From: Escherichia phage EC100
Reading direction: 5' to 3' (one strand)
Sequence record: NC_105587.1
Length of the DNA stretch: 64,000 nucleotides
In this document: positions 7,657 to 52,322 of the stretch, piece by piece
How positions within the stretch are numbered: position 1 is the stretch's first letter
How the letters are laid out: each line of letters begins with the position of its first letter
Program-made: the position numbers and the translations under genes
Notes under the pieces: generated by a model
Databases searched by the model: none
What the model was told of the DNA's origin: nothing
What the model saw: the letters and a program-made list of their open reading frames with translations, nothing else

Positions 7657-8157
7657 TTTAAGTATTTTTAAGAACTCTCGTAAAAACTCTTAAAAATACA
7701 GACGATACCGGGAGAGTCATAAGTCTCACTCATTAAGTATTTCAAGACAAAATACAGTAACGTCTATTATTTTCCAGTTTAAGTCAAGGTGACTTAGTGG
7801 TTATGTCCTGCGGTATATTGAGGACTCGGTTAGGTTAGGGTCATGACTCCCCACCTTTTTGCTGCTACTCAACAGGAGTTATCGCGAATTACCTGTGCTA
7901 TTGTGCACCATTAGTGGCATCTCTCATGCCAGCATTTCCCACTTTATGTATAGCTTGAAAAACTACTCCGATATGGAGGAAAAACTTCACTATCTAGAAT
8001 ACCTTCTAAAGTTCTTCTTTAGCCTGGACATAGTTAAATCGTAATAAAACTATTCAGCAGACTGGTTGGTTAGTCTGGAACCAACTACCGCGTGGTTTAG
8101 GCAGTGCGCAACTAACCTCGGAAGCTTTTACGTTAAAAGCATCAGTTATCCAGTTCT

Positions 8158-8229
8158 TACCGACCGTAGGATTCGAACCTACATCTTCCACCAGTTACGG
8201 CTTGATAATACCAATTATACTAGGACGGC
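8158..8229 (-). tRNA. tRNA-like element (degenerate, possible pseudo-tRNA)
   Basis: T-arm GTAGG-TTCGAAT-CCTAC identical to the one in the 1271-1353 tRNA, acceptor stem with one mismatch, no clean anticodon stem, no CCA. Confidence 0.25.
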
Positions 8230-8305
8230 AGTGTTACTACATAAGTGATTTCCACACCCCACTATTTATAAATTAGATAGAAATTACTCTCTAATTTATG
8301 AATAT

Positions 8306-8334
8306 ATTATATAGAATTTATAAGCATTTAGCAA
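8306..8334 (-). promoter_or_regulatory. T5 early-class promoter (TTGCTA, 17 bp, TATAAT)
   Basis: Minus-strand TTGCTA-17-TATAAT with the conserved CATAAATT downstream box. Confidence 0.6.
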
Positions 8335-8342
8335 ATGAATTT

Positions 8343-8777
8343 TTAGAAAAATTCGCTAGCAATCAAAGCAGTTGTTTTACCATCATAACGCCCTGGAAAC
8401 TCTGCCTTAATGGTTTTCATTAAGAGAGCTTTGGTAATACCCGGGTTTAATTTAACCAGTTCTGCAAAATACTCACGAATCTGAACTTCAGTTAACTGCT
8501 CTAGAGCATATTCATACTCTAGACCTGCTAACAAGTCGAGATATTCAGCATCTGGAGTATATTCGATATTTGCTTTTGCAGCAGAAGTCATTGTATTCTC
8601 AATTGCTTTGAACTGTGATTTAATCCAGTTAGTAAATTCTAGTCTAGATACGCAATCTTTATCAATTCGTTGTAGGTCGCCTAAAATCGTGCTAAGGTGC
8701 TTGACTGACGCAGTATCACCGTGTTTGCGAGCTTTTTCAATTAATTCTCGCAGTACACGAATCATATTCGTACCCAT
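8343..8777 (-). CDS. hypothetical protein (144 aa)
   Basis: ATG start overlapping the stop of an upstream small ORF in a TAATG arrangement. Confidence 0.5.
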   Translation of the reverse strand: MGTNMIRVLRELIEKARKHGDTASVKHLSTILGDLQRIDKDCVSRLEFTNWIKSQFKAIENTMTSAAKANIEYTPDAEYLDLLAGLEYEYALEQLTEVQIREYFAELVKLNPGITKALLMKTIKAEFPGRYDGKTTALIASEFF

Positions 8778-47414: not shown

Positions 47415-47440
47415 CCTACATATCAAATAAATAATAAACC

Positions 47441-47483
47441 CCAGAGGATTTTGTCCTCTGGGGTTTTCTTTTACTTAGCTTTC
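47441..47483. terminator. bidirectional terminator between dut (plus) and the tail fibre gene (minus)
   Basis: CCCCAGAGGA-TTTTG-TCCTCTGGGG hairpin flanked by an A-tract upstream and TTTTCTTTT downstream. Confidence 0.75.
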
Positions 47484-49201
47484 AATATATTTATTTCTTC
47501 TTGCAATTCTTCAACTTTATTAATAAGCCACTTAACCGCAGCAACGGAATCAAGCAACATAACATTTTCATCGATGGCTAACGTTTTCTCTCTTCCTGGA
47601 TCTCCGTATTCCCGTACATATTGGGGATCTATTTTCTGTAAATCCTGGGCTATAAAACCGCGCCTCACTTGTTCATTCTCATCATTTTTATAGATGTATG
47701 ATTTATAGGGCATCTGCTTAATATTACTTATTGCAATATTAGTATCGATGGACTGAATATTTTTCTTTAGTCTTTCATCACAAATCGGAGATTTTGAAAA
47801 AATATAATTTAACGAACCATCGTTGTACCCATATTGAATATCAAATGAATTATCAATAAATGTAAACACGGTAATACTCTTGCCATTACCTTGTTCACCA
47901 TCTGGCAGTGCCCAATCCCTTACTTGAGCAATTGCAGCTCTAGGATAACTATTGCTAGAATCAGGATAAGATATTTGTCCAAAACAAGCAAAAGATCTAT
48001 AGTTTTTTAGTGAATTACCGCTACCACCCCCAAGAATTGGAACGAAGGCACTATACGCTGTGTTATTCCACCAGTCTGGCGCGCGATAAGCGCAGTGACT
48101 ATAGGAATTCCCTGTACCGACTCCGGCCGGCCTATGAGATGTTGAAAACTGACCATTACTGTCATACTTAATGCTTACAGGGATTCCTCTATCATCTGAT
48201 ATAGTTAAACTAACACCCCATGCACCATTAACCACTTTACTTGATTTTAGTTCCGCTACTACATTTGCACTGGGTGATTTATACTCAGATTTAACACTAC
48301 CTCCAAAAACGACAACACCTGAATTGGGGGTTGTTTTATCCGCATTAATAACACTCCACGAGGTATTAGCAGCCACGAACCCACCAGAAGCACGGATTAC
48401 CCACACACCGACAAAGTTTCGTGTAAGAATCTCATCTGTTGATGCCCCGTAAATCGGACTTGATATTGAGGCATTGAATTCGCAGGTATTATAACGCCCA
48501 GATAAAGCTGTAGACCCTGGAGCGATTCCGTCACCTCTTCCGTCAGGAAACGCATTATTGTTTGCATTAAAGCAACCACCTGTATGTCCTAATACCTGGG
48601 CATAGGTTTGAGAGGCATATGTGGTGAAAAAACCTGTAATATTAGGCGCAGCGGATTCGAACAGTTGCCCATTTGCACCACTATTCCCACCATCTCCACG
48701 GCCATAAAGAGCACGTATTGATCCCTCCTGCACCCCATTCTTATCTGGAACACGAAAGGTTGTTGTCCCATCCCCAGATGAGTATCTGCCACGCTGAAAT
48801 TTATCTGCTAACCAAACTGAATCATCTATAGCCCCAACCATTTGTGCATACGCCCAAAGTTCAGGCCAGTCAGCCCTATTAAGAAGCTGTCCATCCGAAA
48901 CGACTTCGTATGGTTGAATATACGCACGACTATCTCGGAGGTGAAAATCACCAACACCGTAGTTCATAACACCATTCATAGTGGGTCCAACTGTACCAGT
49001 GTTAATCTTATTCTCTACCCAACGTTTAGTTGCGGCATCATAATCCCCAACAGGATCACCAGCAAGAGGGGTTGAACCAATAGGTCTTACATTTAGCCAC
49101 GCTGCTGCACGGTCTGCTAAGTCACTCAGGTTATTATTTTTATTAAGTGACTCATTTTTAAGTTTTGTAATATCCGTAGGAATTACTGTTTTAGTTACCA
49201 T
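47471..49201 (-). CDS. tail fibre protein with phage tail-collar domain and C-terminal intramolecular chaperone (S74-type) domain
   Basis: Collar-domain block LNRADWPELWAYAQ...GDGTTTFRVPD; C-terminal chaperone block DERLKKNIQSID...YKSYIYKNDE...RRGFIAQDLQ; 576 aa. Confidence 0.8.
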   Translation of the reverse strand: MVTKTVIPTDITKLKNESLNKNNNLSDLADRAAAWLNVRPIGSTPLAGDPVGDYDAATKRWVENKINTGTVGPTMNGVMNYGVGDFHLRDSRAYIQPYEVVSDGQLLNRADWPELWAYAQMVGAIDDSVWLADKFQRGRYSSGDGTTTFRVPDKNGVQEGSIRALYGRGDGGNSGANGQLFESAAPNITGFFTTYASQTYAQVLGHTGGCFNANNNAFPDGRGDGIAPGSTALSGRYNTCEFNASISSPIYGASTDEILTRNFVGVWVIRASGGFVAANTSWSVINADKTTPNSGVVVFGGSVKSEYKSPSANVVAELKSSKVVNGAWGVSLTISDDRGIPVSIKYDSNGQFSTSHRPAGVGTGNSYSHCAYRAPDWWNNTAYSAFVPILGGGSGNSLKNYRSFACFGQISYPDSSNSYPRAAIAQVRDWALPDGEQGNGKSITVFTFIDNSFDIQYGYNDGSLNYIFSKSPICDERLKKNIQSIDTNIAISNIKQMPYKSYIYKNDENEQVRRGFIAQDLQKIDPQYVREYGDPGREKTLAIDENVMLLDSVAAVKWLINKVEELQEEINILKAK

Positions 49202-49210
49202 TATAAAACC

Positions 49211-49489
49211 TTATGCCCATACTCTAAGAGGCTGTTCTAGCTGAACTATAAAAGGCTCGAAGTATTCGTAAGTAAAGGATTCATCAAGAATCCTTACATT
49301 AACATAGTATCCTTCATTACGGACGTACATAGGCTCCTCATCATCTGGCGAGGAGATTTCAGTATAAGTATAGCCAATCTCGTCCAGGAGAAACATATCT
49401 CGTAACTCTTCATTTTCTTGCCAACTTATTCCAACTAAGAAATTTTTATATTCATTCTTGTCTTTAAATTTTAGTGTTATGTCTTTCAT
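49211..49489 (-). CDS. hypothetical small acidic protein between the two fibre genes (92 aa)
   Basis: ATG with GAGGGAG ribosome-binding site; start overlaps the stop of the upstream fibre gene. Confidence 0.45.
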   Translation of the reverse strand: MKDITLKFKDKNEYKNFLVGISWQENEELRDMFLLDEIGYTYTEISSPDDEEPMYVRNEGYYVNVRILDESFTYEYFEPFIVQLEQPLRVWA

Positions 49490-51900
49490 ACAGACTCCCT
49501 CATTTGACGATCTGTTAATTCTTTATGCCAGATTCTAAAGTTTCTGACATGCCCGAAAAGATGTTTCCCACCATCTGCACTAATGCCGCCAATACGAAGA
49601 TTTTTAGATAAACCAGCTTTCCATGTTGTTTTTACAGGCGCACCGAACACAGCGTTTGTTACGCATCTTAATTCTGAGTTTTTGTTACAAACGAAACCTG
49701 TCACCATTTTCCCGCTTGTTTTTGTTGATACTGGCGTATATGACTGACTTACTCCCAACTGAGAATAAGGCAGCGGTTCTACTGTATCACTTGATGGAGC
49801 TCTGAAAGCAACTAATAACTGGTCTTCTGGTAAATTTGCTACATGTACTATCCTTGGGGCTGAGTTTGGAGGTATATCCCAGTTTCTGTTTACCTCAACA
49901 AGTAGACTTAATGGTATAGATGATGGTTGATTGCAATCAGTTGGTATTAAAACCATGTCACTAGCGCGAGTTGCTGGCGCACCTCCTGTGATTATGAATG
50001 AAGAAGCGCACGATCCGGTCTCTACTTGAGGTGTAGCTAAGTTAAGCGATGCACCTGTTTGTATAACACTTTCATTTTCAGGGCATACAATCTCAAAACG
50101 ACAAACAGCAGATAGATCTGTATCAAATCCGAATGTCGTTTCAAAGTACCACCAATCACCATCTTTTACCGATCTTGATGTGTATAAAGGACCAGAAGTT
50201 ACCTTACCAGTATCAAGATCGAGAACTGAATCAGAATGAAAAATTGCTACACCATCAGTTACTTTTGCAAGCCTCATTCGAAGCCTAGAATTAGACCCTG
50301 CTTTAGCACGACATGACACTGTAATATAATCACCCGTTGTTCCGCTAATAGCATTACCTATCACCATGCTCAAAATTTGATAGCCGGCAGCGTTTGGTGC
50401 TTCGTTTGTTACAGTTACACGCCCATAATTGAATCTACCATCGTTTGACTCCTCGATACCTATCGATGCTGTTTTATTCCATAATGCCGGTGAGTTGGAA
50501 TTTAAGAAATAATTAGTTCTTTGCCCTTCAATAAGCAAACCATCTCGTTCAAATCGCGGTTCGTCAACTTCAGCAATGGTCAATATACCGGACTTATTAA
50601 TATATGTCGCAGTTGATGCACGGGTAAAGCTAACAATCTTGTCGCTAGGCAGTGTTATTTCCTCATCACCGACTGTTATTTTTTTATAGCCTGGTGCAAA
50701 GCCGGTGATCATATCTAGAGAATCGTTAAACGGTATCCATACATCTGGAAGAGGTTGAATGTCGGGGGTAGAATTAGCAGCAGCTTCTGATCTATCAGCC
50801 TCAGTTTTTGAACGGTCGGCTTCAGTTTTAGCAGTATTAGCACTATTGGCAGCATTAGTAGCTTGTTTTCCAGCTTCAGTAGCAGAATTTGCAGCATTAG
50901 TTGCAGAAGCAGCAGCTTGGTTTTTTAAAGTTGTTGTCTCAGATACCGCGCTATCCTTAATACCTTGTGTATCTATTTTTAATTGCTCAACATCTGCTTT
51001 TAAAGCTGTTGTCTCTGTTACAGCACTATTTTTAATGGCTTGGGTATCTGTTTTTAATTGCTCAACATCTGCTTTTAAAGCTGTTGTCTCTGTTACAGCA
51101 CTATTTTTAATGGCTTGGGTATCAGATTTTAACTGTTCAACATCTGATTTAAGTCCTTGAATAGTAGTTACAGATTGACTGGCGGAAGTTGCAGATCCTG
51201 CAGCATTAGTTTCACTAGCCTTAGCTTTTGTTTCCGAGGTTTTTGCATTGGTTTCAGAGATTTTTGCCGCAGATGCCGATGCAGCAGCTTGCTCAGAGAA
51301 TATTTCCGCCTCATTCCTAAAACCGTTAGAAGCAGCAGCTGATTGAGCTGCATTAGTCTCACTGATTTTTGCTTTATCTTCACTAATTTTTGCAGCTGCA
51401 GTCGAAGCAGCAGCATTAGTTTCACTAGCCTTAGCATTAGTCTCGGAGGCCTTAGCTTTGGTTTCACTAGACTTTGCATTAGTTTCTGATGTTTTTGCAT
51501 TAGTCTCGGAGGTTTTAGCCTTAGTTTCACTAGCTTTCGCATTAGTCTCGGATACTTTAGCTGCTGCAGCTGATTCTGCAGATTTAGTAGCAGAAGTGGC
51601 AGACTGAGTAGCAGAAGTAGCTGATTGGGTAGCCGATGCTTCAGAAGCTCCAGCGGAAATAGCAGCTTCCTGCTCCGAATTCTTAGCATTAAGTTCTGAG
51701 GTTTTAGCTGCTATTTCAGAATCTTTTGCAGCCGCAGCAGATTTAGCAGCGGCCTCTATAGAGGATACTAACTCATTAGCAGTAATAGAGCTAATAGAAT
51801 TTCCAAGAGTTACTGTGTATCTAGGAAATTTACTAGCAGTAGCTTTAGTATCATCAATATTTAATATTTGTTGTACAATAATCTTAGTAGTTATTGCCAT
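49486..51900 (-). CDS. tail fibre protein with Ala/Ser/Thr-rich repeat shaft and C-terminal LamG-like domain
   Basis: 804 aa; SETNAK-type hexapeptide repeats, two to three 25-aa repeats (TETTALKADVEQLKTDTQAIKNSAV), C-terminus GHVRNFRIWHKELTDRQM resembling LamG jelly-roll ends. Confidence 0.7.
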   Translation of the reverse strand: MAITTKIIVQQILNIDDTKATASKFPRYTVTLGNSISSITANELVSSIEAAAKSAAAAKDSEIAAKTSELNAKNSEQEAAISAGASEASATQSATSATQSATSATKSAESAAAAKVSETNAKASETKAKTSETNAKTSETNAKSSETKAKASETNAKASETNAAASTAAAKISEDKAKISETNAAQSAAASNGFRNEAEIFSEQAAASASAAKISETNAKTSETKAKASETNAAGSATSASQSVTTIQGLKSDVEQLKSDTQAIKNSAVTETTALKADVEQLKTDTQAIKNSAVTETTALKADVEQLKIDTQGIKDSAVSETTTLKNQAAASATNAANSATEAGKQATNAANSANTAKTEADRSKTEADRSEAAANSTPDIQPLPDVWIPFNDSLDMITGFAPGYKKITVGDEEITLPSDKIVSFTRASTATYINKSGILTIAEVDEPRFERDGLLIEGQRTNYFLNSNSPALWNKTASIGIEESNDGRFNYGRVTVTNEAPNAAGYQILSMVIGNAISGTTGDYITVSCRAKAGSNSRLRMRLAKVTDGVAIFHSDSVLDLDTGKVTSGPLYTSRSVKDGDWWYFETTFGFDTDLSAVCRFEIVCPENESVIQTGASLNLATPQVETGSCASSFIITGGAPATRASDMVLIPTDCNQPSSIPLSLLVEVNRNWDIPPNSAPRIVHVANLPEDQLLVAFRAPSSDTVEPLPYSQLGVSQSYTPVSTKTSGKMVTGFVCNKNSELRCVTNAVFGAPVKTTWKAGLSKNLRIGGISADGGKHLFGHVRNFRIWHKELTDRQMRESV
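50910..51140. repeat. tandem repeat of about 75 bp, roughly three copies, inside the 804-aa fibre gene
   Basis: GCTCAACATCTGCTTTTAAAGCTGTTGTCTCTGTTACAGCACTATTTTTAATGGCTTGGGTATC occurs twice nearly identically with a diverged third copy; encodes 25-aa repeats. Confidence 0.7.
51170..51560. repeat. short 18-bp coding repeats (hexapeptide SETNAK-type) in the fibre gene
   Basis: Recurring TTAGCATTAGTCTCGGAGG / TTTGCATTAGTTTCTGATG units on the plus strand. Confidence 0.6.
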
Positions 51901-52322
51901 TATCTAGTTACCCCATCACTGATAAATACTTTACCCTCCATTATACGAAAAGAGCTAATAGCTGATCCTATGACATCTCGTGTCATAATTATATCATAGT
52001 ATCCTGCAAAACGTTGGCGAGGGTTATACTTATCTCTCTCTTTGGTAGCTTTTTCACCAATATTATCTACCGCCTCTACAGGTAAACTTATAGCTATGGC
52101 ACCTTGAGCAGCATCAATAATTTTAGTAGTAAAAGATGCCAAAGTTTCCGCATTCTCATCAAGCCCGGCCTTTATAGTACCCCTTAGAGAATACCCCGTT
52201 AAGTTAACAGGGGTATTTGTAGGTGGATAAGTACTATCATCAACATCTAAGAATTGCATCATTAGACCATAAGGTACTTTCTCATCTATCACTAAGTCTA
52301 TAACTCTATTTTCAGTACTCAT
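51900..52322 (-). CDS. tail collar protein (T5 p132-like)
   Basis: 140 aa; position between pb4-like and fibre genes and size match the T5 tail module; no catalytic motif. Confidence 0.55.

Follow-up and report, generated by a model that had tools for sequence, protein, structure and literature searches.

Phage T5 builds its lateral tail fibre from a single polypeptide, Ltf (pb1), of 1396 amino acids (aa), whereas the corresponding locus of Escherichia phage EC100 contains three open reading frames (ORFs) of 804, 92 and 576 aa, all on the minus strand. What kind of fibre do these three genes build? We present here an analysis of this locus in a stretch of 64,000 nucleotides (nt) from sequence record NC_105587.1, called the window below; all positions are counted from its first letter. 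An earlier note on this DNA, made from the letters alone, had given the three ORFs exactly as they are found, had correctly named the single long fibre gene of T5, and had proposed a branched fibre of two proteins. Our reading, to which we give a probability of about 0.8, is that the late operon formed by ltfC and the three ORFs encodes a two-segment lateral fibre of the type found in phages AKFV33 and IrisVonRoten (Bas32). Little is new in the locus itself, since its genome has been released before and related phages with the two-segment layout are on record.

The locus and its counterparts

The genes of the operon and the terminator that closes it are the following.

51900..52322, minus strand: ltfC, 140-aa collar protein anchoring the lateral fibres (Pfam PF23926 LtfC, E 8.4e-15; same position as ltfC of DT57C)
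49486..51900, minus strand: proximal lateral tail fibre protein, 804 aa (ORF; phrog_1419 tail protein, E 5e-205)
49211..49489, minus strand: 92-aa acidic partner protein (ORF; phrog_1361, "unknown function")
47471..49201, minus strand: distal lateral tail fibre protein, 576 aa (ORF; phrog_6921, E 1e-208)
47436..47466, both strands: bidirectional intrinsic terminator (13-14 bp stem and T run)

The 804-aa gene lies directly 3' of ltfC, with homologues of pb4 and pb3 further upstream of ltfC. Its stop codon overlaps the start of the 92-aa gene (ATGA, preceded by GGGAG), and 9 nt separate the 92-aa stop from the 576-aa start; the junctions look like those of a single operon. The terminator at 47436-47466 separates this operon from the convergent dut gene, and an equivalent one is annotated in T5 and AKFV33. 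The collar and anchoring role of LtfC comes from cryo-electron microscopy of DT57C (PMC10713586).

The 5-kb region is 100% identical to that of the Tequintavirus phages EC104, EC105, EC122 and EC142, which were isolated from bird faeces with ECOR4, 19 and 20 as hosts (PMC9583813); EC122 is the reference name in the identity and repeat comparisons below. These four identical isolates, sequenced at 204-636x coverage, have the same three-gene layout, and so do at least 10 independently sequenced relatives; carriers include IrisVonRoten, T5_ev219, JLBYU40, Stokescottia, YJin-2024a, FFH1, AKFV33 and L6jm. A full-length homologue of the 804-aa protein is present in about 50 phage records and LtfC at 60% identity or more in about 450, so that roughly one-tenth of T5-like records, duplicates included, carry this architecture.

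In IrisVonRoten, gp22, gp23 and gp24 (796, 92 and 574 aa) follow ltfC directly, in the same order, and are 64%, 76% and 51% identical to the proximal, small and distal proteins of the window; gp24 and the 576-aa protein share 97% identity in their first 150 aa. The two phages hardly differ in anchor, shaft, joint and distal N-terminus, and both have a lectin-like end on the proximal protein and, on the distal protein, a Gp12-like domain, a second receptor-binding domain (RBD) and an S74 chaperone. Identity is only 32% in the first jelly roll, 27% in the second, 30% in the distal tip and 39% in the chaperone, and from these low values in tip and jelly rolls receptor specificity is presumably different. 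The 25-aa shaft repeat occurs in three copies in the window and two in Bas32, and the chaperone cleavage site has Cys in the window and Ser in Bas32. AlphaFold-Multimer models of IrisVonRoten predict that the proximal fibre, from which a galectin-like domain protrudes, carries a T-shaped distal fibre composed of a Gp12-like RBD1 and a T5-like RBD2 with intramolecular chaperone (Humolli et al. 2025, PMC11990801). IrisVonRoten infects K-12 with restored O16 antigen (PMC11990801).

The O157-specific T5-like phages AKFV33 and FFH1 have the same three-gene layout, with ORF137 (ltpA), ORF136 and ORF135 (ltpB). AKFV33 is its first record, described in 2012 as lacking Ltf and having two novel fibre proteins (Niu et al., PMC3326045); mass spectrometry confirmed that virions contain ORF137, the proximal protein (PMC3326045). 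The small protein of AKFV33 and FFH1 (ORF136 in AKFV33, not discussed in PMC3326045) is 31-33% identical to the 92-aa protein, and the lectin-like domains and distal tip of FFH1 are 24-33% identical to those of the window. A literature search combining tail fibre, LamG and Tequintavirus found nothing, and these phages are absent from the RBPseg tail-fibre atlas.

Two observations on reading frames concern this locus. The 92-aa and 576-aa ORFs are in frame with each other across a gap of TAA plus 9 nt (TAAGGTTTTATAATG, window 49199-49213), and of the 42 viral loci whose downstream sequence is long enough, 9 have the same 13-nt offset (L010-L017); read-through would join the two ORFs, and no sign of such read-through was seen. 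In the T5 reference AY543070, two short ORFs, T5.135 and T5.136, stand at the ltfC position (8056-8480 of locus L009), unlike the intact 140-aa ltfC of the window (51900-52322) and of DT57C; this split agrees with a remark on a frameshift error (PMC10713586).

The proximal and distal fibre proteins

The proximal protein is divided as follows.

51766..51900, minus strand: N-terminal LtfC-binding anchor, aa 1-45 (almost the same as the N-terminus of DT57C LtfA, PDB 8hqz)
51412..51633, minus strand: 21-bp heptad repeat arrays, K[AT]SETNA / SATQSAT (Tandem Repeats Finder [TRF], period 21; 6.4, 4.2 and 2.7 copies)
50923..51150, minus strand: 75-bp repeat, three copies, 25-aa unit ALKADVEQLKTDTQAIKNSAVTETT (TRF, 3.0 copies, 89% match)
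50536..50760, minus strand: conserved joint segment, aa 381-455, PLPDVWIPFNDS... (many invariant columns)
49963..50535, minus strand: first jelly roll, aa 456-646, hypervariable, candidate glycan-binding domain
49489..49923, minus strand: second, Laminin_G_3-like domain, aa ~660-804 (PF13385 in homologues)

The 804-aa protein is identified as the virion-anchored subunit by its N-terminus: residues 1-188 are 54% identical to residues 1-202 of DT57C LtfA and 53% identical to residues 1-205 of T5 Ltf. The LtfA N-terminus attaches as a "lasso", part of which is resolved in the LtfC ring (PMC10713586, PDB 8hqz), and the window has ltfC immediately upstream of the 804-aa gene, as a T5-type anchored fibre does. 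T5 ltf also lies between dut and ltfC, with the same bidirectional terminator, and its product matches the window at 53% identity over the N-terminal ~200 aa. The likeness ends there, for T5 Ltf carries its own tip and chaperone on the same chain and has no lectin-like joint, small partner protein or separate distal fibre, while in the window the three ORFs place a chaperone in the 576-aa protein only.

Residues ~45-380 of the 804-aa protein form a repeat-built shaft, predicted to be a coiled coil. The 75-bp unit, present three times, had been noticed before; an 18-bp unit proposed beside it proved to be a 21-bp heptad, with TRF arrays at 51412-51558 and 51578-51633 and the strongest self-match of the coding DNA at period 21 (0.46) against 0.33 at period 18, a spacing at which no repeat signal stands out. 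Beyond the shaft, region 381-470 retains 71-92% identity across cassettes, including those of Drexlerviridae and Queuovirinae, and about 80% in KarlJaspers and VogelGryff. A monomer AlphaFold2 (AF2) model leaves the joint segment unfolded (pLDDT, the predicted score in the local distance difference test, below 50), and a segment so conserved and yet unfolded as a monomer fits an intertwined or partner-dependent structure.

The C-terminal end of the protein comprises two predicted beta-sandwich domains of ConA/LamG type, that is, jelly rolls. Residues 456-646 match the NCBIfam model GTA_spike_fiber (E 8.5e-19, 68.8 bits against a cutoff of 36), and this hypervariable first jelly roll is a likely glycan-binding site. 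The namesake of the model, the head spike fibre of RcGTA, binds capsular polysaccharide experimentally (PMC10218006); this spike and the fold relatives suggest that the 804-aa end binds glycans as well. Pfam Laminin_G_3 (PF13385) is matched in the corresponding C-terminal region, the last ~130 residues, in 26 of 50 homologues. The Pfam S74 chaperone domain is absent from the 804-aa protein. The repeat-rich shaft, LamG-like C-terminus and missing chaperone domain that the earlier note had described are thus borne out.

The distal protein has four parts.

49112..49201, minus strand: putative N-terminal docking motif, aa 1-30, MVTKTVIPTDITKLK... (shared by third-gene products of several phage families at their N-termini)
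48302..49111, minus strand: Gp12-like or collar region, RBD1, aa 31-300 (homology to DT57C LtfA and LtfB and phiEco32 gp15)
47783..48301, minus strand: variable distal tip, RBD2, aa 301-473 (alignment and tblastn)
47474..47782, minus strand: Peptidase_S74 intramolecular chaperone, aa 474-576 (Pfam PF13884, E 8.9e-15)

The N-terminal motif was followed with the degenerate DNA pattern IP[TA]DIT.LK, which found 10 viral contigs; the motif gene stands directly after the 92-aa gene in all 10. The Gp12-like RBD1 is assigned after PMC11990801: residues 3-307 of the 576-aa protein are 64% identical to DT57C LtfA 511-821, residues 30-313 are 63.5% identical to DT57C LtfB 206-487, and residues 49-570 are 48% identical to phiEco32 gp15. 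Of the two domains previously assigned to this protein, the C-terminal chaperone is confirmed by the PF13884 match (residues 474-529, 55.2 bits against a cutoff of 22), and the tail collar is sub-threshold in Pfam (Collar, E 2.3). Residues 301-465, in the tip, are 94-96% identical in Stokescottia, YJin-2024a and L6jm and 21-30% identical in the other proteins aligned. With the last 279 aa (RBD2 and chaperone) as the tblastn query, 8 further records matched at 95-99%, I14, NG_A1 and VSe12 included; the other 669 matching records fell below 60% identity, the best, at ~42%, being phiEco32-like podoviruses and Drexlerviridae.

The cleavage motif of the chaperone reads C-D-E-R-L-K (PIC-DERLK) in place of the usual S-D-x-R-x-K, with the Cys474 codon at 47780-47782. 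An exhaustive S74 search returned 1077 relatives, and the 150 best representatives were examined; among the 112 of these that align at position 474, Ser is found in 102 and Cys in 10, and the Asp and Lys are essentially invariant. Since Cys474 is a recurrent minority variant in a setting of nearly invariant Asp and Lys, it is probably a working nucleophile, and the chaperone is probably released by a predicted Cys474-Lys479 dyad.

Two genes annotated as "putative lateral tail fiber chaperone", in KarlJaspers (L004 5607-6284) and VogelGryff (L007 5267-6433), encode the IPxDITxLK motif, coiled-coil heptads and an S74-type C-terminus. From these sequence features, they look like short distal fibres instead.

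The 92-residue protein and the rival readings

The 92-aa protein is acidic, as had been noted (isoelectric point [pI] 4.24). It has no match in Pfam or NCBIfam and no similarity in sequence or fold to chaperones of the lambda Tfa, T4 gp38 or Mu U type, and a fold search with its AF2 model (pLDDT 83) gave no informative match. Its homologues were found by tblastn in 204 phage records. From the records or their names, the gene was confirmed in Tequintavirus, Drexlerviridae, Dhillonvirus, Queuovirinae, lambdoid Jouyvirus and some Vequintavirus, each time next to a tail fibre gene; LamG-tipped side fibres thus have this companion in six or more groups of phages. In 79 of 80 IMG/VR loci the 92-aa gene directly abuts a LamG-tipped fibre gene, here meaning a gene whose product shows homology to the 804-aa C-terminus over its last ~420 residues; in the exception (L035), the LamG-tipped gene is ~2.9 kb upstream, apparently parted by an insertion. 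The cassettes of lambdoid prophages, Drexlerviridae, Dhillonvirus, Queuovirinae and some Vequintavirus differ from the window in their N-terminal anchors (e.g., the lambda Stf-type PF08400); most of them share 41-47% identity with the 804-aa protein over the C-terminal ~420 aa, and their small protein, always adjacent, is 32-64% identical to the 92-aa protein.

What follows the small gene depends on the phage. In virulent siphoviruses a third gene begins 13-16 nt after it; the encoded protein opens with the conserved M-x-T-x-T-x-I-P-x-D-I-T-x-L-K, behind which coiled-coil heptads and an S74 chaperone usually come. A gene for a 97-aa putative membrane protein comes next in 67 prophage-type loci, with no distal fibre in the available flank; the lambdoid prophages, unlike the window, thus have this gene in place of a distal fibre. 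The 92-aa gene is always intact in these loci (16 alleles), with a ratio of nonsynonymous to synonymous substitution rates (dN/dS) of ~0.2-0.34, against 0.09-0.35 in T5-like phages; it is under purifying selection, also in prophages without an adjacent distal fibre. From this distribution, the 92-aa protein functionally belongs to the LamG-tipped end and not to the distal fibre, and the distal fibre is an optional add-on specific to the 92-aa/LamG cassette. Most likely, the 92-aa protein serves a fibre end without a chaperone of its own, as assembly partner or cap, and it probably remains at the joint to which the distal fibre would dock. Virion proteomics was searched for the small protein: the AKFV33 study covered only four gel bands, and the rV5 proteome is uninformative because rV5 itself is not among the 41 records matching the 92-aa protein and its gp41 ends in a chaperone of the endosialidase type.

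Further observations were made on these cassettes. The ~97-aa hydrophobic ORF of lambdoid prophages (MDISPLLHALCAVAAQ...; L018-L089 and L005 5551-5844) is conserved and begins 16 nt after the 92-aa gene; in Lambda_4B5 the cargo genes sitABCD come after it. Fibre cassettes of T5-like or rV5-like coliphages, some of them 100% identical to genes of Escherichia coli phages, also occur in records labelled "Campylobacter phage" (C13, C15, A116 and others) or "Listeria phage LM 4-11-1" (e.g., MG065692, MG065654 and OR847733); probably, either the hosts are mislabelled or samples were mixed.

Could the three ORFs be one long ltf gene broken by sequencing or assembly errors, as the earlier note had allowed? 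No support for such frameshifts was found, though the 92-aa and 576-aa ORFs do share a frame. The four identical isolates and at least 10 relatives, among them the eight carriers named above, have the same layout, each ORF has its own start context, the dN/dS of the 92-aa gene is well below 1, and in KarlJaspers the counterparts of the two genes overlap in different frames. Because the layout recurs in so many relatives, an artefact is ruled out, and the earlier note's two separate fibre genes stand. A second rival is the branched fibre of DT57C, with which that note had equated the locus: LtfA would correspond to the 804-aa protein and LtfB, branching off its side, to the 576-aa protein, each a complete receptor-binding fibre. 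DT57C and DT571/2 (PMC4728585, PMC10713586) do share with the window two fibre genes downstream of ltfC, the LtfC collar, the LtfA-type anchor and, distally, the Gp12-like module and the S74 family, and the identity to LtfB 206-487 favours this equation; the match to LtfA 511-821 is equally good, however. The distal module, an in-line part of LtfA in DT57C with a second copy in LtfB, is split off as the 576-aa chain in the window; the S74 chaperone is present in both LtfA and LtfB, whereas the 804-aa protein has none and ends in LamG-type domains, without any LtfA-type receptor-binding tip; and DT57C has neither a small gene between ltfA and ltfB nor LamG-type domains. The DT57C branch is thought to arise from the docking of the gp15-like N-terminus of LtfB on a gp14-like segment of LtfA (Golomidova et al.). 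By BLASTP, the first 45 residues of LtfB are 71% identical to phiEco32 gp15 and LtfA 223-471 is 44% identical to gp14, but no gp14 match was found in the 804-aa protein and no match to gp15 or LtfB 1-45 in residues 1-48 of the 576-aa protein. A DT57C-type branch is therefore improbable here, and a simple LtfA/LtfB paralogue pair was rejected on the differences in chaperone, docking element and 92-aa gene. What remains of the earlier proposal is that two fibre proteins replace the single T5 Ltf; its ltfA/ltfB equation is not supported. In effect, to judge from the alignments, the LtfA design of anchor, shaft and distal module appears divided over two chains, with the lectin-like domains and the 92-aa gene at the division.

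A further rival concerns the joint of the two-segment fibre. The 92-aa protein may be a stoichiometric structural adaptor, or "knee", whose N-terminal half sits on the proximal C-terminal domain and whose C-terminal half sits on the distal N-terminal motif. Translational coupling with the 804-aa gene would suit such a part, as would the docking motif found downstream of the 92-aa gene only (10 of 10 contigs) and the co-variation of 92-aa residues 1-50 with proximal 651-804 and of residues 51-92 with distal 1-30. Adjacency alone predicts the same co-variation, though, so that it is not decisive for contacts and linkage may explain it; the 92-aa gene is intact and under purifying selection in the 67 prophage-type loci that have no adjacent distal fibre gene; and phiEco32-like phages and DT57C attach the same distal module without such a protein. 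The adaptor is accordingly a tentative option, less favoured than an assembly partner or cap. Rather unlikely is the wider proposal that the 92-aa protein and the joint segment form an undescribed plug-in connector, a socket for interchangeable distal fibres that begin with MxTxTxIPxDITxLK; if true, this would be a third mount for the T-shaped module, besides in-line fusion and the phiEco32 gp14/gp15 interface.

The two-segment reading has points of its own to answer, and the ambiguous co-variation is one of them. Cys474 replaces the nucleophilic Ser of the chaperone, with Asp475 and Lys479 present; the 804-aa protein of the window itself lies under the Pfam Laminin_G_3 threshold; and we depend on inference or on the models in PMC11990801 for the docking site, the T shape and the 92-aa protein's stoichiometry. 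All of these weigh against it.

Fibre length, module exchange and host range

Repeat counts were compared in 11 proximal fibres. The 25-aa unit is present once in YJin-2024a, twice in Bas32, NG_A1, JLBYU40, Stokescottia, L6jm, VSe12 and one IMG/VR phage, and three times in EC122, T5_ev219 and FFH1, and the alignment of the 804-aa protein with its Bas32 counterpart has a gap of exactly 25 residues. The heptads number 1-11, and the shaft upstream of PLPDVW measures 252-382 residues. Repeat copy number makes shaft length differ between isolates, as had been suggested from the tandem repeats.

Identity to EC122 changes block by block. The anchor block is 95-100% identical in all T5-like phages. 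The first jelly roll (471-650) reaches 89% in L6jm and 24-33% elsewhere, and the second domain with the C-terminal end (651-804) is at 92-100% in T5_ev219, JLBYU40, L010 and L6jm and at 25-69% elsewhere. The distal tip and chaperone are 94-99% identical in Stokescottia, YJin-2024a and L6jm and 21-39% identical elsewhere. Such block-wise identity is the pattern expected of exchangeable receptor-binding modules, and the mosaic agrees with the earlier view of a diverged host-range module in an otherwise T5-like backbone. In VSe12 (L012 6289-8018) and NG_A1 (L090 1574-3303), the distal fibre gene is split into 2-3 ORFs, with the proximal and 92-aa genes intact; this could reflect pseudogenisation after laboratory passage or sequencing errors. 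Fibre genes are often lost on rough hosts (Golomidova et al.).

The two-segment fibre may be assembled and used as follows. By homology, LtfC would form a collar that catches the N-termini of nine 804-aa chains (three trimers), and each trimer would project as an alpha-helical coiled coil whose length is set by the number of heptads and 25-aa repeats. Past the joint, each chain would end, as in its homologues, in two jelly rolls of ConA/LamG type. The three pairs of jelly rolls, candidate glycan binders, may splay at the joint with the 92-aa protein bound; gene neighbourhood and translational coupling to the 804-aa gene suggest that this protein is dedicated to the LamG-tipped end. The 576-aa trimer would plug into the joint through its N-terminal MxTxTxIPxDITxLK motif and, once the chaperone is cut at Cys474, would show two binding regions, the Gp12-like one and the variable tip. 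With up to three kinds of binding domain, the fibre may bind O-antigen or other surface glycans reversibly. Such binding would concentrate the phage on smooth strains before pb5 meets its outer-membrane receptor, and would set which strains can be reached; reversible glycan binding ahead of the pb5 step is established for T5-like phages generally (PMC4728585, PMC8594841).

Several consequences go beyond this locus. For annotation, a ~92-aa gene is to be expected after a LamG-tipped fibre gene, and the gene that comes next, if its product starts with IPxDITxLK, is a distal fibre and not a "chaperone". The aligned relatives show that a Cys-Lys variant of the self-cleaving S74 domain recurs in nature. 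What interest the locus has lies in the widespread 92-aa protein, as assembly partner or, less probably, as joint adaptor. The plan that emerges is modular: an anchor, a length-variable shaft, a lectin-like joint, a small partner protein and a swappable distal fibre. Since the range of O-antigen-bearing strains that a T5-like phage can infect is decided by its lateral fibres, this plan helps to predict and engineer the host range of phages for biocontrol and therapy.

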